Assembly (NCBI GenBank): GCA_043803105.1
Contig: JAZDKJ010000008.1
Span: 1 to 64,000, forward strand
DNA: 64,000 bases
Origin: Candidatus Woesearchaeota archaeon
GTDB taxonomy: Archaea > Nanobdellota > Nanobdellia > Woesearchaeales > JAZDKJ01
Reading direction: 5' to 3'
The notes under the pieces are model-generated. The model was not told the origin of the DNA and did no database searches. It saw nothing but the letters and a program-made list of their open reading frames with translations. Below are positions 16,247-28,364 of the stretch, in pieces. The stretch's first letter is position 1; every line of letters starts with the position of its first letter. A program made the translations under genes and the position numbers.

Positions 16247-17506
16247 TCAGACGCTGCGTTCTGCAATCAACTTAGAAAACAATCGTTCTCCATATTTTGT
16301 GTACATCATATTTTTCTTAACCTTGGGATCATTCTTTAGATAATCAATGAGTTCGGTTTTACTGAGTTTGAGGTATTTTTTCATCAACCAAAATCCTTTT
16401 TGGGTTGCCGCCCATACAAAGTCCAGATCATTGAATGCAGCAAGATTCTTGTCCTTAAGGTAAATACGGTAGTCGCCGAATGCCCAGTTATCATGAACCC
16501 CAACAAGATTTACGATTGCATTTGATTTGCGCTTAGGGTAACCTGTCTTACCCAAAATATCAATAGCAATCTCTTTCCCACGTTTCATATGTAGCCTTCT
16601 GACATCCCTGTCAAAAGGGTATTCTTTACCGAATCCAACATAACCAACATCATGAAGAATCACCAATGGAAGAAGAATAGTTTCATCAAGGGACTCCTCT
16701 TTTGCCATTTTTTTTGCTTCTGATAGCATCCACTGAATGTGGTCAACGTCATTAGGCCTAGCTTTCAAATAGTAAGGTTCTGCAAATCTCCATAATTTGT
16801 CATAGATACTTTCATTCCCACATTTTTTATCAAAAGTGCATTCGGTGCAGTTTGGCAACTTCATGCAGTGCCTCTTTGCATGCTCAACTATTAAAGCATG
16901 GAATTCCTGGAAGACTTTCCAATCCTTTGTAAGTGATTTTTCGAAAAAATGTCGAACATCATCATAATCCGAGTTTTCCTTAAAAAATTTTGCTCTTGAG
17001 AAAATTCTCTTTGTATAGGCGTCAACAACGAAAATTGGGACTTTGTAAGCATACAACAGAATTGAGTCAGCAGTCTCTTTGCCTACACCCCAGACAGAGA
17101 GCAGCTGCTCCCTGGTCGGAGTCCTTCCCTTCAAACTAAGGTAAAAATCTGCAAATATCTTGAGCTTCTTTGCCTTTTGGTTGAAATATCCTGCAGGCTT
17201 TATCGCTGACGTTAATCTGTTAACGGACATTTTCTTAATCTTTGCTGCATCGATTGAATTTGATTTCTTGAGGTTTGTTAGGGCTTTCTCGACATTAGGC
17301 CAGGCAGTGTTCTGCGTCAGTATGGCACCAACACAAATCTCAAATCTTTGCGCATCTGTTCGTGGATACGAGTAGTCTCCGGGATGATAACCTCTAATCG
17401 AGCCTGTCTTTGTCGGATTGCAACCTTTGCAATCTAGAAGAGGCCACCAGCCTTGAGAGCCGTAGTTCTTGAGAAGGGTTTTGTAGATTTGGAGGATTTG
17501 GTTCAT
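16247..17506 (-). CDS. Endonuclease III-like HhH-GPD glycosylase fused to a C-terminal HD-domain hydrolase
   Basis: GWWP, GAILTQNTAW, LLSVWGVGKETAD, VVDAY, Fe-S motif CMKLPNCTECTFDKKC; then H...ILHDVG...HD...D. Confidence 0.85.
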   Translation of the reverse strand: MNQILQIYKTLLKNYGSQGWWPLLDCKGCNPTKTGSIRGYHPGDYSYPRTDAQRFEICVGAILTQNTAWPNVEKALTNLKKSNSIDAAKIKKMSVNRLTSAIKPAGYFNQKAKKLKIFADFYLSLKGRTPTREQLLSVWGVGKETADSILLYAYKVPIFVVDAYTKRIFSRAKFFKENSDYDDVRHFFEKSLTKDWKVFQEFHALIVEHAKRHCMKLPNCTECTFDKKCGNESIYDKLWRFAEPYYLKARPNDVDHIQWMLSEAKKMAKEESLDETILLPLVILHDVGYVGFGKEYPFDRDVRRLHMKRGKEIAIDILGKTGYPKRKSNAIVNLVGVHDNWAFGDYRIYLKDKNLAAFNDLDFVWAATQKGFWLMKKYLKLSKTELIDYLKNDPKVKKNMMYTKYGERLFSKLIAERSV

Positions 17507-17594
17507 TTAGGCTATTTAAGTCACTCTTATTATAAATAATTATTTATACTTATAAATTCATTTATGCTTACTACAAAGGAACAGAGGTTTTTAC

Positions 17595-18011
17595 ATGAAA
17601 ATCTTTTTTTCAGGTTCGATTCGCGGCGGTAGAAATGATGTTGATATTTACAGAGAAATAGTCGACTACTTGAAGACCAAGGGAGAATTATTCGGTGAAT
17701 TTAATGCCGATAAGACTTTGGAGGAAAAGGAGAAGAAGGAAAAAACAAGTGACAATGAAATTCATAAGAATGATGTAAGACTGATAAAACAATGTGATAT
17801 TTTAGTTGCAGAGGTCTCAACTCCCAGCATTGGAGTTGGATACGAAATTGGGATTGCTGAATCCCTTAAAAAGACAATACTGTGCCTATTCAGAGAAGGA
17901 GTAGGTGCAAGACTATCAGCCATGATTAATGGCAATGACAAGATCACTGTCATAAGGTATACAACGGTGGAGGAGCTTAAAGAAGAACTCAAGGATTTTT
18001 TTGATGGTTGA
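17595..18011 (+). CDS. Nucleoside 2-deoxyribosyltransferase / DNPH1(Rcl)-like N-glycosidase
   Basis: IFFSGSIRGGR, D...CDILVAEVSTPSIGVGYE, LSAMI. Confidence 0.9.
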   Translation: MKIFFSGSIRGGRNDVDIYREIVDYLKTKGELFGEFNADKTLEEKEKKEKTSDNEIHKNDVRLIKQCDILVAEVSTPSIGVGYEIGIAESLKKTILCLFREGVGARLSAMINGNDKITVIRYTTVEELKEELKDFFDG

Positions 18012-18057
18012 GACTCTCACGACCGATAGTTGCCTGTATTAAACAAAACCTTTAAAT

Positions 18058-18088
18058 ATAAGTAATACTTATTGGTAAGTAAATCTTA
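18058..18088 (+). promoter_or_regulatory. Putative operator pair upstream of the AbrB-PIN module
   Basis: Perfect palindrome ataagt-aat-acttat plus imperfect copy taagtaaatctta, next to a TTTAAATA box. Confidence 0.5.
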
Positions 18089-18103
18089 TTATAGGTGAAA
18101 AAA

Positions 18104-18361
18104 ATGGACAAGATCGAGATAACCAGCATGAGTTCAAGGGGGCAGGTTGTTATACCTCAAGACATTAGGGAGCAACTTGGTTTGCGAGATGGTGAGAAGT
18201 TCGTTGTCATAGGTGAAGATGACACTGTGGTCTTAAAGAAGATATCAATGCCCTCTTTTGAAAACTTTGACAAGCTGCTTAAGAAGACTCAAGAGTTTGT
18301 CAAGAGCAAGAATATCACTAAGGAAAAACTTGAAGGAGCTATCAGCAGAGCTCGGAAATGA
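18104..18361 (+). CDS. AbrB/MazE-family antitoxin
   Basis: MSSRGQVVIPQDIREQLGLRDG. Confidence 0.9.
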   Translation: MDKIEITSMSSRGQVVIPQDIREQLGLRDGEKFVVIGEDDTVVLKKISMPSFENFDKLLKKTQEFVKSKNITKEKLEGAISRARK

Positions 18362-18759
18362 AGGTAGTTATAGACACCAATGTTTTCATCTCAGGGATAT
18401 TTTGGACCGGCAGCCCAAATAAGGTAATAACTGCATGGAAAGCTGGAAAATTCCAAACTATTGTGTCAATTGATATTGTCAATGAGATAAGTAGAGTATT
18501 ATCTGATTTTGAAATTGCTCTTCCGCCAGAGCAGATTAGCGAATGGACTGATTTGATAATGAAGAATTCTATTATAGTAGAACCTCAGGACAAGGTGATG
18601 ATTGTAAAGGAGGATCCAGCTGACAATAAATTTGTAGATGCGGCTGTTTCAGGAAAAGCAGAGTTAATAGTGACCGGAGATGCTCACTTGAAGAAACTAA
18701 AAGAGTATCAAGGAGTAAAGATCATTTCTCCTGATGAATTCTTACAAATGTTGAAATAG
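18358..18759 (+). CDS. PIN-domain (VapC-like) toxin
   Basis: VVIDTNVFIS, DPADNKFV, IVTGD.HL; ATGA overlap with the antitoxin. Confidence 0.9.
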   Translation: MKVVIDTNVFISGIFWTGSPNKVITAWKAGKFQTIVSIDIVNEISRVLSDFEIALPPEQISEWTDLIMKNSIIVEPQDKVMIVKEDPADNKFVDAAVSGKAELIVTGDAHLKKLKEYQGVKIISPDEFLQMLK

Positions 18760-18773
18760 GATATGGAATTTAC

Positions 18774-18964
18774 TCACTCAAAAGTATATATTGTAGAATA
18801 TATTAAAATTATTAGTTAATAAGATTATTAAAACAAGAAGGAGGTTTTAGGTTTTCCATGCTCAGAAAATATGATTTTCTGGCATCAGAAAAATGCTCTG
18901 GCATTTTTCGACATTTGGAACAAAAAATATCTGGAATCCCCAAATCCTTAGTATTCCCAATATA
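18774..18964. repeat. Island-end element R, copy A (complete)
   Basis: 18774-18845 identical (72 bp) to 24855-24926; 18847-18940 identical (94 bp) to 25729-25822. Confidence 0.9.
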
Positions 18965-19159
18965 TTGTGTCAGTATTGCCCCAACACAGATTTCAAATTG
19001 CTGGTTTTTTGTCTTTGGATAAGAATAGTCTCCTGGATGATATCCTCTTATTGAGCCTGTCTTTGTCGGATTGCAACCTTTGCAGTTTATGAGGGGCCAC
19101 CAGCCTTGAGGGCCGTAACTTTTCAAAAGGGTTTTGTAGATGTAAATTTTTTCTTTCAT
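18965..19159 (-). pseudogene. 5' fragment of endonuclease III-like gene truncated at GAILTQ
   Basis: YKTLLKSYGPQGWWPLINCKGCNPTKTGSIRGYHPGDYSYP...GAILTQ matches the N-terminus of 16247-17506, then similarity stops. Confidence 0.9.
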
Positions 19160-19161
19160 GA

Positions 19162-19461
19162 TTAATAATGACCAGCTTTGTTTATTCGTTCTTGATTCTG
19201 TCTAATTTTTTTGAGTTTCTCAGCTGTTTTATTTTTTGTTAGAACCCAATATACTCCTTGATAAGAATTCTTTGCCAAATAACCGAAATTAACAAGTTCT
19301 CTTCTGATAAGAGCATAATCCTCAACTTCAAAGGAATTAATGACATCATTGACTTCTTGTTCACTATATTCTGTATCTTCTTGAAATTTATTGATTATTT
19401 TTTGCAGGATTTCCTGTTTTTTCAAGTCATCTTTCGGTAAGGTTATCATTGAATTCAGCAA
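19162..19461 (-). CDS. DUF2087-like winged-helix protein
   Basis: LPK...KKQEIL, YSEQEVN, DYALIRRELVNFGYL...YW. Confidence 0.75.
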   Translation of the reverse strand: MLNSMITLPKDDLKKQEILQKIINKFQEDTEYSEQEVNDVINSFEVEDYALIRRELVNFGYLAKNSYQGVYWVLTKNKTAEKLKKIRQNQERINKAGHY

Positions 19462-19739
19462 TACTGAATTTTTATTGATCTTTATTCCTTTTCAATGTCT
19501 TTTTTCATACCAGGAAAGATTCCATCCATCTAGTTCACAATGCCGAAGCAGACAAATATTTTCCACCCAAGAATATAATGGGTTGGCAAGATATTAGTTA
19601 AGACATCTTCTCTATCAGGGTTTAGACCTACTATTGCAGATGCTGCTGCTAATAGGAAACAAAAGACGCACACAAATCGGATTCCCAAAGTACCATCAAC
19701 CCACTGTTTGATTATAAGCTTTTCTTGTGTTAGGATGTT

Positions 19740-20576
19740 TTAACACTTCTTCCACCTGTAAAGTTTGTCAATCCTCGCGTGGTCCACTGCGAGCATCTCA
19801 AAATCAAGACCTGCCTGATTCTCTTCCAGATGTTGCTTATTCATAGAGGTGAAGATTATACTAAAGTTCTTTTTCGCCGTTGCCCAGTTGATCAATATTT
19901 GTGCTTGGCTCTTCCTATATTTGCTCGCAAGCTCTATTAGGAGAGGTACTCTATCCGTTAACAGCTTGCCTCGGCCAAAAAGCTTGTAGGCAATGACCAT
20001 GATGTCATGTTCCTGACAATAATTCATCGTTGCAACATCGGCAGGTGCCTTGGTCCAAAGTGAAAGTTTCATCTGGTTGGCAACAATTTTGGCGGCAGAG
20101 CATTTCTGTGCTTCCTTCAGTTCCTCAATTGAGAAATTGCAAACACCAATGTTACGGACAAGCTTGTGGTTAACAAGAGCATTCATCGCCTCCATTGTCT
20201 CTTGGATTGGTACATCAGGGTTTGAAGAATGCAAGAGGTAAAGGTCCAAATGTTTAATTCCCATTCTTTTTAAGCTTGCCTTGGCTGCTGCTATTAAGTC
20301 ATCGTACCTGAAATGTGTATTGTAGACTTTACTTGTGATTAACAATTCGTTCGTGTCAAACCCACGGATCGCTTCACCCACCAACTCTTCAGTATGGTTT
20401 CCACCGTACACTTCAGCCGTATCAATATGAGTATAGCCCATTTTAATTGCAGTCCTTATTGTGTTTATCCATTCCTCATCTCTGGAATGGTCTGGTTCAT
20501 GCTCGCCGCCGAAGGAAAACGTGCCTATCCCGAGCGCAGGCATACTGAAACGAGATTTGAGCGTTACGGTTTTCAT
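19740..20576 (-). CDS. Aldo/keto reductase
   Basis: LGIGT, HIDTAEVYG, ITSK, DLYLLH, IGVCNF. Confidence 0.92.
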   Translation of the reverse strand: MKTVTLKSRFSMPALGIGTFSFGGEHEPDHSRDEEWINTIRTAIKMGYTHIDTAEVYGGNHTEELVGEAIRGFDTNELLITSKVYNTHFRYDDLIAAAKASLKRMGIKHLDLYLLHSSNPDVPIQETMEAMNALVNHKLVRNIGVCNFSIEELKEAQKCSAAKIVANQMKLSLWTKAPADVATMNYCQEHDIMVIAYKLFGRGKLLTDRVPLLIELASKYRKSQAQILINWATAKKNFSIIFTSMNKQHLEENQAGLDFEMLAVDHARIDKLYRWKKC

Positions 20577-20636
20577 GCTAGAATCCTTTATAAAACATAA
20601 TGATATCTCCTACATTTAAAGGTTTCCCTGTTGGTT

Positions 20637-21535
20637 GGGTGCGTTTAAAATCTTAATTTTTATTAACCCGAGCAGCCGTTAGGCTGCTTGGGGGTGGGGA
20701 GCACGCCCCACCATGGTATGTGATGAGAAGCTGGTAAATAAGATTAAGCGTTTGCTTAGGGCTGTTGGTTGCCCTAGATGGTTGCACCATTTTGGTCCTA
20801 AGAAGTATGAGTTGGTTCACCATTTGCTTGCTTTGATTGTTAAGCAAGAGTGTAAGCTTGGTTATCGTCGAGTTACTAGGCTGTTTAGAGGTTTGGGCTT
20901 AAGTGCCCTTGTTATTCTGCTTTGTGGCATTGTATGAACAGGATTCCTTTGGATTTGTGGCAGCGCGTATTGGCTGCCACAAACAAGCTCAAAAGTTACA
21001 TTGTAGCAATCGATGGCACAGGAATGTCCAGACCATTACCTAGCCCCTATTACTACAAAAGAATTGACAAACCTTATCCGATTGACATTCCACTTAAACT
21101 GTCTATTGCCGTCGACACAAAAACCAAAAGAATTTTAGCTCTTCGACTAAGAGCTAAAAGATCGCATGATATCAAAGATGCACACTATCTTGTGAGGAGA
21201 TTACCAAAAACTGAATGGATTGTTGCTGACAAAGGATACGACGCCGACACATTGCACAAGTTTTGCAAAGCAAGAAATATCAAATGCTGCATACCTATGA
21301 GAGAGTACAGAGAATCCAGAAATAAAAAGCACACTTTAAGACGACAAAATCAAATATATGTACATCATAAAAGATATCACAGAAGAGAGATTGTTGAATC
21401 AGTCTTTAAAGCAATGAAATGCAAATTCGGACCAAGTGTAAACTCCATCCAGATCTGCCCCAAGGGCAGAAATCTATTGTAGGGCTATAGCCCACAATAC
21501 TTTTTCTTATTTTCTAAGACTTTTTAAACGGAGCC
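20637..21535 (+). mobile_element. IS5-like insertion sequence (~900 bp), degenerate
   Basis: Imperfect terminal inverted repeats gggtgcgtttaaaa (20637-20650) / ttttaaacggagcc (21522-21535) around a DDE transposase; no clear target duplication. Confidence 0.75.
20713..21535 (+). pseudogene. IS5-family DDE transposase with two frameshifts (~20899 and ~21458)
   Basis: AIDGTG, ADKGYD, YHRREIVESVF..MK; conserved continuations (KCPCYSAL; RAEIYCRAIAHN) lie in shifted frames. Confidence 0.8.
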
Positions 21536-21643
21536 TGAATGTTTTACCGAAAACTTCCAGAGATGTCTTTCCAAATTCTTGTAGCCAGTTGTGAGGTCAA
21601 ATAAATCAAAACCTATTTATACAGAAAATTTACTCCCCTTCTT

Positions 21644-22234
21644 ATGAGATTAGTGTTGATACGTCATGGTAAGCCCAAAATTACTGATGGAGATCTTTAT
21701 CGGTGTCGTTTGGGAGAAGAAGGAATAATAAACACTAGAGATCTTGCATCCTCTGGAAAGATACCTGTACCGGACCTAATCTTTACGAGCCCGTATAATA
21801 GGACAATAGACACTGCCAGAGTCTTTTCCGAATTTTTTTCTGTAAAATATGAAATCCTAGATTGTTTGAAGGAATGGAACTTACAATCATTAAATCTTAA
21901 AGAAGATTATGCTGTACAAGAGCGGCTTGGCTGGAATGACCATGATAAGGTTGTTTTTGGAAATGAATCATTGAACAATGCTAAAGAAAGGATTTTGAAA
22001 TGTATCAAGGAGTTAGTTGGTAAGCACAAAACACAAAAAAATATCCTCCTAGTCTCACATGGTACCGTAATTGATATGTTCTGCTCAGCCATATCCGGGA
22101 GAGAAGCAAAAATATCAGACATTAGAAATTCGAATCATTTGGACTATGCTGTGGTTGATTTTCAAAGCGGGAAATTCAATTTAATTAAGGATTTGGTACC
22201 AACTCTTAGGGAAGCAGGCCAAAAATCCAGTTAG
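21644..22234 (+). CDS. Histidine phosphatase (PGM-like) family
   Basis: LIRHG, TSPYNRTIDTA, GNES, LVSHG. Confidence 0.9.
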   Translation: MRLVLIRHGKPKITDGDLYRCRLGEEGIINTRDLASSGKIPVPDLIFTSPYNRTIDTARVFSEFFSVKYEILDCLKEWNLQSLNLKEDYAVQERLGWNDHDKVVFGNESLNNAKERILKCIKELVGKHKTQKNILLVSHGTVIDMFCSAISGREAKISDIRNSNHLDYAVVDFQSGKFNLIKDLVPTLREAGQKSS

Positions 22235-22341
22235 GCATCATTTAGAATATAAAAGCGTTCTTTCCAATATCCCAGTCGCACAAGCAATCCCACCAGCGCC
22301 GTTTACAATTTGATTTATTTCTACGATAATCATTTCTATAA

Positions 22342-22390
22342 TCACCCAAAAGCATATATTGCAGAATATAGTAATTTTACTAATTAATAA
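22342..22390. repeat. Element R, left part (diverged copy)
   Basis: About 41/49 identity to 18774-18822 by manual alignment. Confidence 0.75.
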
Positions 22391-22413
22391 AAACCAAAAT
22401 CTTTAAATAATAG

Positions 22414-22428
22414 TTCCTATAATAGGAA
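22414..22428 (+). promoter_or_regulatory. Putative operator upstream of the MNT-HEPN pair
   Basis: Perfect palindrome ttcctat-a-ataggaa just before the ATG. Confidence 0.45.
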
Positions 22429-22433
22429 TTATT

Positions 22434-22982
22434 ATGGAAAGCAAAGAAAATAATGTTTTAGAGTTGTTCTTTAACGAGCCGACTAGAGAGTGGCATTTTG
22501 AAGAGATCCTAAAAGAAGCAAGAATTGCAAGGAGCAAAGCTCTTGGTTGGTTGAGATTGTTTACAAAAGAAGATATTATCAAAAGAATCAAGAAGAAAGG
22601 AAAAATGCCCTTTTATACTGCAAATTTCATATCCAACAATTATAGAAACCTTAAGATGATTTTTGCGCGCACAAAATTCTATGAAAGCGGCTTTCTAAAT
22701 CACCTACAGACTCTAGATAATGTTAAGACAGTAATTCTTTTTGGCAGCTTTGCCAGGTCAGACTGGTACAAAAATAGTGATATTGATATTTTCATTTACG
22801 GAGACCCAAAGAACTTGAAAATAGCGCCCTATGAGATCAAGTTGAATCATAACATCCAGTTATTTATCTGCAAGAATTCCGAAGAGCTTGAAAAATATGG
22901 TGCTGGATTGATAAGAAACATTATTAAGGGGGATTTGATAAAAGGTGATATAGATTTCCTAAGGGTGGAAGTAAATGCCTGA
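22434..22982 (+). CDS. HTH + minimal nucleotidyltransferase (MNT antitoxin)
   Basis: N-terminal wHTH; LFGSFARSDWYKNSDIDIF. Confidence 0.88.
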   Translation: MESKENNVLELFFNEPTREWHFEEILKEARIARSKALGWLRLFTKEDIIKRIKKKGKMPFYTANFISNNYRNLKMIFARTKFYESGFLNHLQTLDNVKTVILFGSFARSDWYKNSDIDIFIYGDPKNLKIAPYEIKLNHNIQLFICKNSEELEKYGAGLIRNIIKGDLIKGDIDFLRVEVNA

Positions 22983-23445
22983 ATACTTGACAAAAGAAGA
23001 AGCATTTGCAAAATGCCAAAAGCAAGGCAAATTTATTGCGATTGAAGACATTGATACTGAGAAAATCAAGTCAACTGTCGCTATCGCTGAATCAGACGTT
23101 AAATCAGCGGAGATTCTTAAGAAAAACCTCTCAAAGGAAGCCAATGAGTGGAGCAGTGTCTTCAAATTGTATTACGACGCGCTTCATGAGCTCTCAGAAA
23201 GTTTTTTGCGGTTTGACAAGGTCAAATTTGATAATCACCAGTGTCTGTTTTCTTACCTTTGTGTAAAACATCCCGAGCTTGAACTGTCTTGGGACTTTCT
23301 TGAGAAGGTTAGAACTAAAAGGAACGGAATAAACTACTATGGTATTCCAACAAGCTATGCGGATTGGAAGGAAGTTGAATTGCAAATTAGCCTTTACATC
23401 AAACTGTTGAAAAGGGAAGTCGAAAAGAATATAGAGCAAAGCTAG
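22975..23445 (+). CDS. HEPN-domain toxin
   Basis: Helical; YYDAL, NHQCL, RTKRNGINYYG (R-x4-Y HEPN variant); overlaps the MNT gene. Confidence 0.8.
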   Translation: MPEYLTKEEAFAKCQKQGKFIAIEDIDTEKIKSTVAIAESDVKSAEILKKNLSKEANEWSSVFKLYYDALHELSESFLRFDKVKFDNHQCLFSYLCVKHPELELSWDFLEKVRTKRNGINYYGIPTSYADWKEVELQISLYIKLLKREVEKNIEQS

Positions 23446-23510
23446 AACAAGAAAGGAGGTTTAGGTTTCGACATTTGGCACCCTACAATATTTGGCGTCC
23501 ATTAATCATT
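23445..23510. repeat. Element R, right part (diverged, lacking the hairpin insert)
   Basis: gaacaagaaaggaggtttaggtttcgacatttgg aligns to copy A with the atgctcag...gcattt hairpins absent. Confidence 0.75.
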
Positions 23511-23638
23511 ACAAAAATTGTGCGAGAGGATTGCAAACGCGTTAAGCAAGGATAAGAATATTAGATTACCCCAAAAAAAGCTCCCGGCCAAGTACAAAAC
23601 TCAACAGTTAATAAAAAATAATTAAGGAGGGAAGAATA

Positions 23639-24355
23639 ATGGCAATCAAAGCAATAATCTTCGATTGGAATGACACAATCACGGATCAATCTAGCACATT
23701 TTCCTATTTGTTGGAGAAAAAAATCGACCAGAAAATCATGCAGAATTTTGGCATTAAAGTTGATGATGAAGTATTCCTTTCTGGTATGAGAAAGACTAAC
23801 AAAGAGCTAAGAAAAGTCACCTCAATCAAAGCAAAGGAACTGCCTGGGTTGTGGACCAAGATTTTTTTTAAGCAGATCGGTTTGAAAGTGGACGATGAGA
23901 TAAGCAAACTCATTCAAGAGGAATATGAAAATTACTATTTACTCAATATCAAATTGAATCCAAACGTTGCGGAAACAGTGAGTGTTCTAAAGCAAAAGAA
24001 AATTCAGCTTTTTCTACTAACCAACTGCATTCGATCGAGTCTGAATAAGGAATTAGCAAAGTTTGGATTTGGTGAGTTATTTTCCAAGATTGTTACGGGA
24101 AGTGATGCCGGAGAAAAAACAACGTCAGAACCATTCAAATTGCTTCTAGGAATAATGCAAAATGAATTTCGAGGAGAAATCAGACCACAGGATTGTCTCA
24201 TGGTTGGTAACAGTCCAGAAAATGATCTCCTGGCAGCCAAGTTTGGCATTCATACTGCGATCTATGACAAGACTGGAAAGTACAAAGACCTGAAAGGCAT
24301 GGAGTTTCACGTCAAAGACTTTCTTGAACTTGTTCAACTAGTTGATGAAGTATGA
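23639..24355 (+). CDS. HAD-superfamily hydrolase
   Basis: IIFDWNDT, LLTN, K, MVGNSPEND. Confidence 0.85.
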   Translation: MAIKAIIFDWNDTITDQSSTFSYLLEKKIDQKIMQNFGIKVDDEVFLSGMRKTNKELRKVTSIKAKELPGLWTKIFFKQIGLKVDDEISKLIQEEYENYYLLNIKLNPNVAETVSVLKQKKIQLFLLTNCIRSSLNKELAKFGFGELFSKIVTGSDAGEKTTSEPFKLLLGIMQNEFRGEIRPQDCLMVGNSPENDLLAAKFGIHTAIYDKTGKYKDLKGMEFHVKDFLELVQLVDEV

Positions 24356-24412
24356 GTTACCCCCAAAGGATTTTGTTCTTGGTACCAAGAAATACAAAAG
24401 AAATTTTAAGAG

Positions 24413-24712
24413 CTAGCACAAGCAAGGTGTTGAAAGAAAGAACCAAGTTAATGCAGAGACTTCATGTGCATTCTTTGCGTCAGGCGTTTCCTGGCAGAAA
24501 TGTTCGTCCACCAAGCTTGAATTATCGTTACCATTTGGGAATTCTGCATCTTTGCTCGAAAGTGAGACAAAAGCTTTTACCACCTCAAATCCGTTATATC
24601 GTAGAAAATCCACGATTTCTTCGGCAACTGTATGATTCCAAAGGAACCCTGCTCTTCTTCGGAGCGTACTCGGTTTCAATAAAAAGAAAGTATAATGATC
24701 TTCAGTTATCAT
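24413..24712 (-). CDS. Hypothetical small protein; N-terminus weakly resembles NDP kinase (possible fragment)
   Basis: YTFFLLKPS...EIVDFLRYNGFEVV resembles the NDK start; no catalytic His region. Confidence 0.35.
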   Translation of the reverse strand: MITEDHYTFFLLKPSTLRRRAGFLWNHTVAEEIVDFLRYNGFEVVKAFVSLSSKDAEFPNGNDNSSLVDEHFCQETPDAKNAHEVSALTWFFLSTPCLC

Positions 24713-24854
24713 TTTTCTTAGAGCGATCTTACTTACAACAATATAAAAGTTTTGATTCCCCCCTGCGAAACGCGATTTTGTTTTTGGAAGGAGTGTATAG
24801 GTATCACCCTTTAGGCCTCAGACTGTTTGTCCACTAAAAATCCAGCAAAATTCA

Positions 24855-24980
24855 TCACTCAAAAGTATATATTGTAGAATATATTAAAATTATTAGTTAA
24901 TAAGATTATTAAAACAAGAAGGAGGTACTCTTGGGATTCCATGTTTGGTACTCACAATGTCTGGAATACATTTCCTTAAT
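24855..24980. repeat. Element R, copy B
   Basis: 72 bp identical to copy A, then a diverged right part (tttggtactcacaatgtctggaat...ccttaatc). Confidence 0.85.
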
Positions 24981-25023
24981 CCCTTTTTAAACATAAAACA
25001 AAAGATATTTATATAAGTTTATA

Positions 25024-25037
25024 TATACAATTGTATA
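25024..25037 (+). promoter_or_regulatory. Putative operator upstream of the wHTH-RelE pair
   Basis: Perfect palindrome tatacaattgtata next to a TTTATATA box. Confidence 0.45.
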
Positions 25038-25063
25038 AGCTCATATAAATTAGGTGAAGTAAA

Positions 25064-25327
25064 ATGCAAAACTTGGAAATCATTCATTATCCAAATTTGA
25101 AGACAGTTCTTATGGTAGAGGAAACTCTAAAAAAGTCAAACAAATTGATGAGTAGAGAACAATTGAAGAGCAAGCTTAAAACCAAGATTATGCACCAAAC
25201 CCTTAATATTATTCTTAAGTATCTAGAGGACAGTGGGAAAATAATTGACGGTCGAAAAGGAATCATATGGATTCACAACCCAAGCCAAAAACTGGACAAA
25301 GCAATAAAGGAAGGAGTTGAACTATAA
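25064..25327 (+). CDS. Small winged-helix protein, putative antitoxin
   Basis: PNLKTVLMVE...QTLNIILKYLEDSGKI...WI; translationally coupled to the next gene. Confidence 0.7.
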   Translation: MQNLEIIHYPNLKTVLMVEETLKKSNKLMSREQLKSKLKTKIMHQTLNIILKYLEDSGKIIDGRKGIIWIHNPSQKLDKAIKEGVEL

Positions 25328-25704
25328 TGTTTAAGGGAAAGCCTGTAAAGGTTATTATCACAGGCGGGGCTAAAGAAGAGTTTGATGAACTCAATCAGAT
25401 TGTAGGTGAAGAAATAGCAAAAGGAATAACAAGCAGCGATCATCAAACTTTACTGAATTCAATAAAACAAAAGGTGGATTTATTACAATTGAATCCTGAG
25501 TATGGAATCCATATCCCTAAAGACAGAATCCCAAAAGAGTATGTTGTCAAGTATGATGTTAATAACCTGTGGAAGGTGAATCTCTCAGGGGCTTGGAGAA
25601 TGATTTATACAATAAGGGGAAGTGAAGTAGAGATTATTTCCTTAATACTTGATATTCTGAACCATAGTGATTATGAAAAGAAGTTTGGTTACAGAAAAAA
25701 TTAA
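25327..25704 (+). CDS. RelE/ParE-like toxin
   Basis: NPEYG, NLWKVNLSGAWRMIYTI, ILDILNHSDY..FGY. Confidence 0.7.
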   Translation: MFKGKPVKVIITGGAKEEFDELNQIVGEEIAKGITSSDHQTLLNSIKQKVDLLQLNPEYGIHIPKDRIPKEYVVKYDVNNLWKVNLSGAWRMIYTIRGSEVEIISLILDILNHSDYEKKFGYRKN

Positions 25705-25710
25705 CAAATA

Positions 25711-25846
25711 GAACAGGAAGGAGTTACCTTAGGTTTTCCATGCTCAGAAAATATGATTTTCTGGCATCAGAAAAATGCTCTGGCATTTTTCGACATTTGG
25801 AACAAAAAATATCTGGAATCCCTTAATCATAAGTATTCCTAATATA
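25711..25846. repeat. Element R, right part, copy C (with hairpin insert)
   Basis: 94 bp identical to 18847-18940; continues to the nth junction. Confidence 0.9.
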
Positions 25847-26020
25847 TTGTGTCAGAATGGCCCCGATACACACCCCAAAGCACTGCGCTTCTGTCTTAGG
25901 GTAGCTGTAATCGCCAGGATGATACTCACATAACAGAGTTTTGTCATTTATCAGACGCCACCATCCTTGAGGACCATAACTCTTGAGAAGGGTTTTGTAG
26001 ATTTGGAGGATTTGGTTCAT
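25847..26020 (-). pseudogene. Second 5' fragment of endonuclease III-like gene truncated at GAILTQ
   Basis: First 40 bp identical to 17467-17506; ends GAILTQ followed by element R. Confidence 0.9.
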
Positions 26021-26062
26021 GGCCTGTTTATTGAAAATGGATTATATTAAGACACATTTCAA

Positions 26063-26479
26063 TCAATCAGATAATTCTTCTTCTCGAATCTTTGCCAGCA
26101 ACTTTTTAGTGTTATCAAATGGCAAAAGCTTTGCAGCCTCTGTTTGGGTTACCCATGCGAATTTTGTGTGTTCATTAGAGAGTTTAACTTTTTCTTCGTT
26201 TGTTTGAACAAGATAGTAATGGATAATACGTTTTTTCAAAACATCAGGTTTTTGCACAGCGTAATTAATAGCGCCAATCTTTTTTATTATTTTGATCATA
26301 TGGATACCTACCTCTTCCTTAATTTCTCTTTTTATAGTGTCTTCGTGAGATTCAAGGTCTTCTGTGTGCCCCTTTGGGAATTCCCAATCCTGGCTATCAG
26401 CTCTAAGTAAAAGGAGGAATCTTTTCTTGATACCATTATAGAGGAATGCGCCAACTGATTCTTCAGTTACATATTTCAT
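26063..26479 (-). CDS. NUDIX hydrolase (Ap4A hydrolase-like)
   Basis: WEFPKGH...REIKEEVG, LSNEH..FAW. Confidence 0.88.
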   Translation of the reverse strand: MKYVTEESVGAFLYNGIKKRFLLLLRADSQDWEFPKGHTEDLESHEDTIKREIKEEVGIHMIKIIKKIGAINYAVQKPDVLKKRIIHYYLVQTNEEKVKLSNEHTKFAWVTQTEAAKLLPFDNTKKLLAKIREEELSD

Positions 26480-26774
26480 TTTACCCTTCAGCGATGTTAA
26501 ATACTGACCTTATTAACCTTCTGCTTGGTGGATTGCCTTGCAGAGAATAAGCAACATCAGGACCTGAACAATTTATTCCTATGTTGACAACTCCTTGTTT
26601 TGTTCGACCACCCCGGAATACGAAATATACTTCACTGCCTACACTCTGCTTAATGTATTCATACATTGTTGCAAACACTCCCAATTCATGACATGTGGCA
26701 TTACCTGAGTAGATATTCTTATCCAGGACAGCATGACCCCTGATTGAAAACGGCCTTTGCGCCAAGTTTGCTCT

Positions 26775-27278
26775 CTGCGGATCAAGTCCAAGGGTGGGTT
26801 CGTCCAAAAAAAGTATTTTAGGCTCGTGAAGAAGGCCTCTCGCAATCTCCATCCTGCGGCGCATCCCGCCAGAATACTTCTTGACCTGGTCATTTTTTCG
26901 CTTCTGCAGGTTGACAAGAGAAAGAACCTTGTCAATCTTTGTCCCAATGTCACGCAAGGGAAGGTCATATATCAGAGCATGAAGCTTTAGGTTCTCATAA
27001 CCTGTAAGAAGCTCATCAGAACTAGGATCCTGGAAGACGATTCAAATCGAATCCCTAACCTTTGCAGGCTCACGCACAACATCAAAGCTGTTGACAACTG
27101 CCTTACCTGAAGTGGGCTTTAGCAGAGTGTAGAGCATAAGCAGGGTTGTGGTCTTGCCAGCACCGTTAGGACCTAGGAGCCCAAATATTTCGCCTTCATG
27201 AATCTTTAGGCTAATCTTATCAACTGCTAGAAGATTGCCATACTTCTTGGTGAGGCTGTTGACCGTAATTGCATCCAT
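26775..27278 (-). pseudogene. ABC transporter ATPase pseudogene (in-frame TGA at 27042-27044, truncated after LDPQ)
   Basis: GPNGAGKT, SI*IVFQ, YSGGMRRR, LFLDEPTLGLDPQ, then unrelated sequence. Confidence 0.85.
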
Positions 27279-27341: not shown

Positions 27342-28364
27342 TTAGGTTTTACAACCTGTTGTCGCGTCGCAACCCTTGTTACCACAATATTGGGCATAGT
27401 CATAATACTTACAATAACCAGGGTCGCAGCTAATATCTGTGCCGTGACCTGTCGTGCAACGGTTGAAGTCTTTCCAGACTGCTCTGCCGTAAACACACTT
27501 GTTCTGAAACTCATTAGGTTTGGTCAAACAATTCTCCTTAGGCAGTGGATTGCAGGAATTATTTGAACAGCCGTATTGGCAAGTTGTGCCTGAGTCCCAA
27601 ACCCAGTTGCTTGTGCAGGTCCTTAGCATGCTGCCATCACAGATGGTCTGGCCCATGACACAAAAGTCACTCAAGTCACAAGTGCAGGCACCGGGTCCTT
27701 GAGGTCCTTGAGGTCCTACTTCACCCTCTGGTCCCTGCGGGCCTGTTAGACCTATCGGTCCTATCAAGCCTGGCGGTCCTACTGGCCCTTGCGGTCCTGT
27801 TGCTCCAGTGGTGCCTTTATCGCCTTTCAAACCCTGAGGTCCTGTTGGTCCGGCTGGTCCTGCCGGGCCTGGAGGTCCTTGCGGTCCTGCTGTTCCTGTA
27901 TCTCCCATTTCTCCCTGAGGTCCTTGCGGCCCTGCGGTTGGTGTGATCTTGAATGCATTATACCTTATCCAGAAGTAGTTATTCGGTGTGTCATAGAAGC
28001 CGAACATCATTCCTTGAATTATTATACCGTTTTCACAACCTAAGGTGAAAGTTCCCGAACTCCTAGCGGCATCCACGGTTGCACCAGTATAAAATCCTTC
28101 ACAGGCACCCACATCTGCAAAGTTTGCGGTTACATTGCCGTACATTTCTCCAACAGTGCTGCACATGCTGTCGTAATATGTATTGCTTAATACATCAATA
28201 GTCCCGTCAAGGTCGCCGTTAAGACTACCTGTGAACTCCTTAACCCCAGTTGGGCGGCCAATATATGTTAGCCTTCCGTACCCTCCAATTCGTTCCCAGT
28301 CAGCCAATACCACTGGCACCAACATTAAAAGCAGCGTAGCCAACAAAAAGATTGCTTTTCTCAT
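27342..28364 (-). CDS. Secreted collagen-like protein with Cys-rich C-terminus
   Basis: Signal peptide; 26 uninterrupted Gly-X-Y triplets (27693-27932); Cys-rich tail. Confidence 0.88.

Follow-up and report, generated by a model that had tools for sequence, protein, structure and literature searches.

Why should unrelated toxin-antitoxin (TA) operons line up at the copies of one repeat? This question is raised by the first 64 kb of contig C8 (JAZDKJ010000008.1) of a Candidatus Woesearchaeota archaeon (assembly GCA_043803105.1; 1.56 Mb in 13 contigs), a stretch that we analyzed as a whole and refer to as the window. The genome encodes a TATA-binding protein (TBP), a family for which, among the control genomes, only the four archaeal ones gave a match, in agreement with a small-genome archaeon. 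A low-GC stretch within the window (17313-25846; GC 0.369 versus 0.436 and 0.448 in the flanks) carries three TA-type operons on the + strand whose toxin genes end 7, 0 and 4-7 nucleotides (nt) before copies of a repeat termed R, as an initial annotation of this DNA had noticed. That annotation took R for a recombination site at which cassettes are captured, functionally like in an integron. Our results suggest that R is most likely the scar of small TA-bearing mobile islands, all of which entered a DNA-repair gene at a single codon.

The copy R1 (18767-19159) consists of three parts. Part a (18767-18845, + strand) is AT-rich, contains the palindrome AAGTATATATTGTAGAATATA and ends with AACAAGAAGGAGGT, while part b (18846-18965, +), the long form of what we call arm S, includes a double hairpin at 18858-18910. 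Part c is a gene fragment at the right end of R that the initial annotation had overlooked. Its 195 nt correspond to the first 65 codons of the neighboring gene, which encodes an endonuclease III (EndoIII)-like protein of 419 aa with an HhH-GPD domain fused to an HD domain (16247-17506, - strand; Pfam HhH-GPD 2.7e-16, HHH, HD). R is therefore not the free-standing site for which it had been taken. A decayed protein-coding gene had been named beforehand as the finding that would speak against such a site, and the right half of R is the displaced 5' fragment of a protein-coding gene. All seven homologues from relatives and most metagenomic ones end at ~214-241 aa without HD.

Three such fragments, hereafter called orphans c1, c2 and c3, lie upstream of the intact gene and in its orientation. 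Their homology to the intact gene ends on one side at the start codon and on the other exactly after the Gln codon of the motif GAILTQ, which is codon 65 of the intact gene and ends at 17312/17313. Orphan c1 (18966-19159, -) comprises the first 65 codons in an open frame, is cut after ...GAILTQ, and is 80% identical to the intact gene over 65 aa (tblastn, E 2e-30). Orphan c3 (25847-26020, -) has 58 codons, is of the '...INxKTLLCEYH...' type and is likewise cut after ...GAILTQ. Orphan c2 (~23518-23600, -, right limit approximate) is heavily decayed; GCAATCCTCTCGCACAA and TATTCTTATCC are still recognizable in alignments, and no significant match to it was obtained by tblastn.

The other copies of R are partial. 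R2a (22339-22390, +) corresponds to the left portion of a in a diverged form (83% identity to R1) that is cut after TTAATAA, and R2b (23443-23517, +) consists of AACAAGAAAGGAGG plus a short arm S without hairpin. R3a (24849-24990, +) contains a part a (24855-24926) identical to that of R1 at 72 of 72 nt, followed by a diverged short arm S (24927-~24990) and by no gene fragment. R3b (25709-25846, +) is made up of AACAGGAAGGAG plus a long arm S with a double hairpin at 25740-25792, and extends to 26020 if its gene fragment is counted; part b of R1 shares 94 identical nt with it (25729-25822). Thus, the long arm S, distinguished by a 50-nt double hairpin, is found in R1 and R3b, and the short form without hairpin in R2b and R3a. 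In a search of the whole genome, R1 matched only 17313-17488, 24855-24943 and 25709-26002, the remaining 31 of 35 match rows being at most 27 nt long with E of at least 0.006. No match to a part a consensus was found in one genome per species.

Two alternative origins of arm S were rejected. An origin from the 3' end of a gene with an internal deletion finds no support, since part b is unlike the C-termini and downstream DNA of seven homologues, and arm S does not continue the gene as codons 66-80 (best local alignments 21-24 versus shuffle maxima of 25-28). Likewise, no homologues of the open reading frame (ORF) tail read from b and a were found among proteins of 63-202 aa. Of the two arm forms, only the long one carries the double hairpin as an insertion, and the hairpin fold is stronger than that of shuffled sequences (z -3.7 and -4.3). 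The motif consists of ATGCTCAGAAA-loop-TTTCTGGCA, after which come a second, AT-rich hairpin and a run of T residues. It also occurs between genes in at least six other genomes of the order (L170, L171, L174, L176, L048, L177) and, besides 18858-18910 and 25740-25792 of the window, at a third site in the same genome (C5:113045-113100). Stem 1 is invariant while the loops vary, and three of 18 pairs are changed on both sides, i.e., in a compensatory manner; no Rfam match and no conserved ORF were found for it.

We analyzed the divergence among the intact 5' end, c1 and c3, which share 73-80% protein identity. Pairwise synonymous divergence (dS) is 1.0-1.9 and the ratio of nonsynonymous to synonymous divergence (dN/dS) is 0.12-0.18, with a dN/dS of 0.13 for c1 against the intact gene. 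The intact copy and c1 are up to 83% identical to homologues on unrelated metagenome contigs, a level that the identities among the fragments do not exceed; the best outside match of c3 is 62%, and the N-terminal type of c3 (...INDKTLLCEYH...) also heads a full-length gene in another genome of the order, G140. These divergence values and outside identities show that the fragments evolved apart within functional genes before they came to lie next to each other. The orphans thus stem from separate working alleles and not from decay in place.

These data bear on the simplest alternative, in which the segments were duplicated in place and then decayed and exchanged sequence by gene conversion, with no site-specific recombination and with the TA-bearing segments resisting deletion. 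R is indeed strictly local, pseudogenes abound in the region (the ABC ATPase at 26481-27278 is split, and an insertion sequence (IS) is in two ORFs), and the 100%-identical stretches would be recent exchange between copies. However, local duplicates decaying neutrally could not show a dS of 1-1.9 with a dN/dS of 0.12-0.18, each fragment is preceded by a different sequence that reaches as far as the start codon, and the same break occurs in three other genomes, in two of them with an adjoining integrase. Local duplication followed by decay is accordingly disfavored, and we regard it as improbable. Even less probable is an assembly artefact, in which strain variants of a hypervariable locus were strung together via the 72- to 94-nt identical stretches. 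Although the assembly is in 13 contigs and contains perfect repeats of 72 and 94 nt, identity between the copies is 70-80% in c, and their flanks are different. The three orphans have distinct genes upstream, which precludes that all of them are alleles of a single site, and G140 has the same topology independently.

To place the break in a wider context, 401 genomes sampled from the order were surveyed with c1 as the query. The EndoIII-like gene was found in 167 of them, and a short orphan only in this genome (G000), G140 and G340, a count that leaves out matches cut by contig ends (G270 and G378). In G140, an ORF of 86 aa ends with ...ICIGAILTQ and then diverges; 47 nt further on follow an MNT-HEPN pair, a phosphoenolpyruvate (PEP)-utilizing enzyme and the full gene. 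In G340, the orphan ends with ...GAILTQ, and 125 nt further on an ORF begins that is truncated by the contig end; a phage-integrase domain (PF00589) is present in each of its four longer homologues (581-592 aa, 45-67% identical). In G361, an integrase homologous to that of G340 (41% identical) and a gene copy beginning with MTQNTSW are divergently oriented, the integrase starting at a distance of ~120 nt from this copy; this arrangement represents the reciprocal junction. The break point is common to all of these: the orphans c1 and c3 and those of G140 and G340 end with the Gln codon of AILTQ, and the gene of G361 resumes there. It is this boundary between fragment and arm, after the Gln of GAILTQ, that recurs to the nucleotide across genomes, and not the AACARGAA point or the taataa-ga-ttatta palindrome at which the junctions had initially been placed.

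The first bases past the break are also alike in the window and G340 (TATATTGGG versus TATTTGGTG), and TTCCAGrTATT stands at offset 29-39 past the break in both the window and G140; both similarities are modest. The full gene of G140 (L189, G140:C27 9287-10096) has an in-frame insert of 46 aa between AILTQGTAW and TILTQNTAW, bounded by near-identical 27-nt repeats that encode these two stretches. The insert resembles a footprint left by recombination at this very target.

Taken together, an intact target gene with displaced fragments (c1 and c3) upstream of it in the same orientation, and the same break nucleotide in independent insertions, point to integrative islands. We give a probability of roughly 0.55 to the reading that in 17313-25846 three or four integrative islands, all small and decayed, are stacked in tandem at the GAILTQ codons (60-65). 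In this reading, each incoming element would carry a copy of the first 65 codons with it and thereby keep the gene whole, and each insertion would push the previous 5' end outward, giving rise to c1, c2 and c3. An orphan would stay joined to the terminal arm of the element (arm S, the AACARGAA box and sometimes part a), and R would be an attR-type scar composed of the displaced 5' gene end and the island arm. The ORF of the target is whole at 419 aa, and the fragments bear the mark of purifying selection. Orphan c3, which has a NUDIX gene upstream, is probably the original chromosomal 5' end. The modules delimited in this way would be 17313-18965, with a nucleoside 2-deoxyribosyltransferase-like gene (NDT) and the AbrB-PIN pair; 18966-~23517, with DUF2087, an aldo/keto reductase, an IS, a histidine phosphatase, and MNT and its partner; ~23518-24990, with HAD; and 24991-25846, with the wHTH-RelE pair. 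A TA operon sits at the arm in every proposed module, and in G140, too, the TA pair adjoins the orphan. The TA operons would be cargo located directly at the arm that was kept while the integrases and other cargo were lost, probably because the loss of a TA pair is costly to the cell.

Several results weigh against the stacked islands. No integrase or remnant of one was found in the window or on contig C8 with PF00589 and tblastn, and the modules are only 0.8-4.6 kb long. For two TA operons of unrelated type, the distance from their end to the same AACARGAA box is 0-8 nt, which is not predicted by islands. R1 equals R3 minus an insert of 802 nt, which better fits an insertion inside the arm than stacking. 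Orphan c2 is more decayed than c3, contrary to a simple outward order of age, and R3a is an arm without an orphan, so that the history of the locus must include deletions or gene conversion. Among related loci, the element of G361 does not restore the 5' end of the gene, and the integrases of G340 and G361 lie at opposite ends of the junction. No orphan was present in 87 homologous loci (80 metagenomic and seven from relatives; 46 with at least 2 kb upstream) or in 26 further gene-bearing genomes of the class. Finally, the tandem arrangement is that of the 13-contig assembly.

The integrases found beside the break in G340 and G361 would be the type of enzyme that made the junctions of the window. 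Five recombinases of this genome are encoded outside C8, the nearest integrases being on contigs C7 and C10. No locus related to the integrase P0001 was confirmed in the species genomes, and a genome of the same genus (G001, 84% complete) contains no homologue of the EndoIII-like gene. On C7, the integrase of 418 aa that comes closest to the EndoIII-targeting family is directly preceded by 300 nt (C7:30700-31000) that are GC-rich and apparently structured; this stretch may be an RNA gene that serves as the attachment site of that element. On C10, an MNT-HEPN pair lies directly beside a related tyrosine integrase of 413 aa (C10:27372-30073), which is separated from the MNT gene by 450 nt of GC-rich and repetitive DNA, and a second MNT-HEPN-like pair is found at C10:22001-23117.

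The TA operons themselves were identified with graded confidence. The first (18041-18759, +) comprises a promoter-like box (18041-18063), an AbrB/MazE antitoxin gene (18095-18361; MazE_antitoxin 3e-8, AbrB domain 2.9e-11) and a PIN_3 toxin gene (18358-18759; PIN_3 7e-21, TIGR00305 1.6e-18; all by Pfam and NCBIfam). The two genes overlap by 4 nt, as expected of a type II AbrB/MazE-PIN pair, and the stop codon of the toxin gene lies 7 nt ahead of the start of R1 at 18767. The second (22392-23445, +) has a box at 22392-22414 and encodes a winged helix-turn-helix (wHTH)-nucleotidyltransferase (MNT; 22434-22982) and a helical partner of 156 aa (22975-23445) whose gene overlaps the MNT gene and whose stop codon overlaps the start of R2b. 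While the MNT domain is firm (Pfam NTP_transf_2, E 8e-11), the initial label of the partner as HEPN is unconfirmed: no sequence match was found in Pfam, NCBIfam or the PDB, and for the structure predicted from the single sequence (pLDDT 64) there was no fold match with E of 0.001 or below, HEPN chains reaching only ranks 20 and 42. Read by eye, the stretch expected to hold the Rx4-6H motif of a HEPN toxin from a type VII pair is RTKRNGINYY, without His. The third (24996-25704, +) has a box at 24996-25018, a wHTH gene (25064-25327) and a RelE/ParE-like ORF of 125 aa (25327-25704), and it ends 4-7 nt ahead of R3b. For this ORF there are two matches, both weak and below the cut-offs (ParE_toxin, E 0.008; RelE_StbE, E 0.003), no PDB match, and a model that is unusable (pLDDT 43). 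Hence, of the three pairs originally named, AbrB-PIN and the MNT domain are borne out, whereas HEPN and RelE stay provisional labels.

Each operon is headed by a box resembling the B recognition element (BRE) and TATA box, AAACAAAAnnTTTAAATA. Since this box also heads paralogous TA operons elsewhere in the genome, it is of an ordinary promoter type. Paralogues of the window MNT and its partner (50% and 44-53% identical) adjoin the integrase on C10, and a pair paralogous to the wHTH-RelE-like pair is located at C8:94757-95384.

As described initially, the MNT module splits one copy of R, with R2a (22339-22390) on its left and R2b (from 23443-23446) on its right, and the wHTH-RelE-like module is followed by R resuming at the AACARGAA(A)GGAG point (R3b, from 25709). 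R is thus interrupted by two TA operons at an identical AACARGAAGGAG point. The motif AACARGAA(A)GGAG occurs seven times in the 1.56-Mb genome versus ~0.5 occurrences predicted by base composition, and copies of R account for four of these seven. These tight junctions between TA operons and the AACARGAA box are unexplained by the island model. An explanation closer to the initial one is that AACARGAAGGAGGT..TTAGG together with arm S is a secondary attachment site, at which circular TA cassettes without integrase are inserted and excised by a recombinase acting in trans. R1 would then approximate an empty and R3 a filled site, as they share 72 identical nt on the left and 94 on the right, with 802 nt between. 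At either end of this insert there is a diverged copy of the same site (25 of 31 nt agree by hand count), plus a short arm S. The second TA module, too, resumes at AACAAGAAAGGAGG, its stop codon overlapping the motif, four of the seven genome-wide AACARGAA matches fall in R, and each TA module is a complete unit from promoter to stop codon. TA cassettes and arrays without integrase are typical of integrons, archaeal ones included (PMC9668308).

However, there are only two such junctions, the third TA pair abutting the start of part a, and their left sides differ, one lying after TTAATAA and the other after arm S. No RYYYAAC..GTTRRRY pair is present, and part a folds no better than shuffled sequences. 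R or its parts were found nowhere else in the same genome, in 400 genomes of the order (where only the hairpin motif occurs), in the species genomes or in the protein database, and the paralogous TA operons of this genome have no R-type flanks. We therefore judge this explanation possible, albeit unlikely, and remain doubtful of its more specific form, in which the island arms are secondary sites and a tyrosine integrase in trans moves integrase-less TA cassettes of 0.8-1.1 kb, although it is the more novel possibility. If it were correct, the locus would be an integron-like platform in small-genome archaea in which a gene-targeting island integrase takes the place of IntI and attC, and the perfect identities of 72 and 94 nt would reflect recent activity.

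A canonical integron, on the other hand, is not present; the signature is that of islands stacked at a gene target. As the initial annotation had stated, classical attC ends are lacking: no RYYYAAC...GTTRRRY pairs were found on either strand of 17000-27000 versus 2.8 +/- 2.6 in 100 shuffles, using a simple regular expression with ends 50-150 nt apart. No tyrosine recombinase, IntI included, was found on contig C8. The short inverted repeats described in part a do exist, while its folding is no better than that of shuffled sequences (z -0.4 on both strands). No single-stranded hairpin spans part a, the only strong hairpins being the separate 50-nt motif in part b. From the idea of R as a cassette-capture site, a recombination junction and the serial capture of self-contained modules are retained, and the attC-like site is dropped.

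A further candidate for a recombination site is the palindrome AAGTATATATTGTAGAATATA of part a, which could be a dif-like XerA site with modules inserted there. Small modules that have short recombinase sites at their ends and a recombinase encoded elsewhere are represented by the pdif modules of Acinetobacter plasmids, which carry TA pairs, and by integrative mobile elements exploiting Xer (IMEX). In the genome under study, copies of the palindrome are present only within R (18782-18802, 22350-22370 and 24863-24883). With up to two mismatches, it was found at 31 sites in the other genomes of the order (28 of 400), mostly as a single copy, versus six matches for the reversed control; this tally takes in the unpublished genomes G244 and G303. 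The conservation in the order mostly as one copy per genome, the intergenic position in all loci inspected, and two copies in 155-nt direct repeats that flank a 15.6-kb defense island in G255 would agree with a dif-like site. However, no TA junction of the window lies at the palindrome, this genome has three copies, and, in contrast to pdif and IMEX modules, no alternating site orientation was seen. A Xer/dif site is defined by two inverted 11-bp arms with a 6-bp spacer, is unique in the genome, conserved, and located at the terminus (PMC2958812); held against this written definition and aligned by eye as 11-6-11, only the inner six of the 11 arm positions of the palindrome pair. Moreover, the palindrome is upstream of ftsZ in five of 29 loci (L055-L084), beside a BRE/TATA-like (TATAAAGATTTC-like) box, and an ATG follows after 33-35 nt in three loci, which fits a promoter or operator. 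A role as a dif-like site is thus very improbable, and the palindrome may be an operator or promoter element.

The 15.6-kb segment of G255 (L165, G255:C12:70400-90000) contains a type I restriction-modification system, a Cas4/DUF2779 protein and a HEPN-like protein, and no integrase was recognized in it by Pfam. Its direct repeats (1875-2029 and 17437-17620 of L165) are ~155 nt long and 81-89% identical, and consist of the 3' end of an ORF of 540 aa plus the palindrome. An MNT-HEPN pair beside the palindrome in G036 was set aside as coincidence, since it is only 22% identical to the window pair.

Integration of the kind proposed for the stacked islands is familiar. According to the Islander study, islands split and regenerate their target gene, the displaced fragment marks the outer end, and repetition leads to tandem arrays (Hudson et al., 2015; PMC4383910). 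The locus shares with such islands the intact target, the fragments in the same orientation that mark the ends, the presence of several islands at one target and, here only in related genomes, the tyrosine integrase beside the junction. It differs in that its target is a protein-coding gene and not a tRNA or tmRNA gene, and in that its islands, at 0.8-4.6 kb and without an integrase, would fail the Islander filter of one integrase per island. The dusA islands replace the 5' end of a gene, the original 5' end becoming the outer boundary (Farrugia et al., 2015; PMC4482086). Entry into the 5' part of a conserved housekeeping gene is common to both cases, and here, too, the island would supply a new 5' end. 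Unlike in the dusA case, the present hosts are archaeal, the target is the EndoIII-like HhH-GPD gene at its GAILTQ codons, the tyrosine recombinase of ~590 aa looks unrelated, and the 5' end is not restored in G361. Compared with integron arrays and clusters of attC sites lacking integron-integrases (CALINs; Ghaly et al., 2022; PMC9668308), the locus is alike in its small, TA-rich modules of the same orientation with a repeat between them and no integrase nearby. It is unlike them in having no attC ends or site-spanning hairpin, a repeat that holds a gene fragment, interspersed opposite-strand genes and an IS, and a recurrent junction inside a gene.

While the island event is thus of a familiar kind, we found no description of this target and lineage; the literature search for the EndoIII-like gene as an integration target was limited and is no proof of its being unpublished. 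The GAILTQ codons of the EndoIII-like glycosylase gene represent a concrete, testable integration target, with a candidate integrase family of ~590 aa. To our knowledge, mobile elements and attachment sites are poorly mapped in small-genome archaea. Islands that shrink to a TA pair and a scar would explain why unrelated TA operons are lined up at one repeat. The locus also calls for caution in repeat-based searches for new recombination sites, as the repeat is here largely a displaced gene end.

The remaining genes of the region were assigned by Pfam. The cargo of the gene-proximal module includes NDT (17595-18011, +; Nuc_deoxyrib_tr 1.2e-13). The cargo of the second module extends as a whole over 19162-22234 on mixed strands, as delimited by Pfam and the sequence, and comprises the DUF2087 gene (19162-19461, -), the stop codon of which is 2 nt away from the start codon of c1, the aldo/keto reductase (19740-20576, -), the IS with a DDE_Tnp_1 transposase split over two ORFs (20713-21482, +), and the histidine phosphatase (21644-22234, +). 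The HAD hydrolase (23639-24355, +) is followed by ~490 nt without a family match, up to 24848. No tRNA was found in the window, and Rfam gave nothing in 15-28 kb save one sub-threshold row. The cargo genes show no synteny with the 87 homologous loci, except for one weak NUDIX match.

Upstream of orphan c3 lies the NUDIX gene (26063-26479, -), followed by an ABC-transporter ATPase (26481-27278, -) that is split into two ORFs of 78 and 158 aa, the second of which enters unrelated sequence; this split gene is probably a pseudogene at the island edge. The adjacent gene (27342-28364, -) encodes a secreted protein of 340 aa with a collagen-like Gly-X-Y run (GPQGP...), which is reflected in 9-nt periodic repeats in the DNA.

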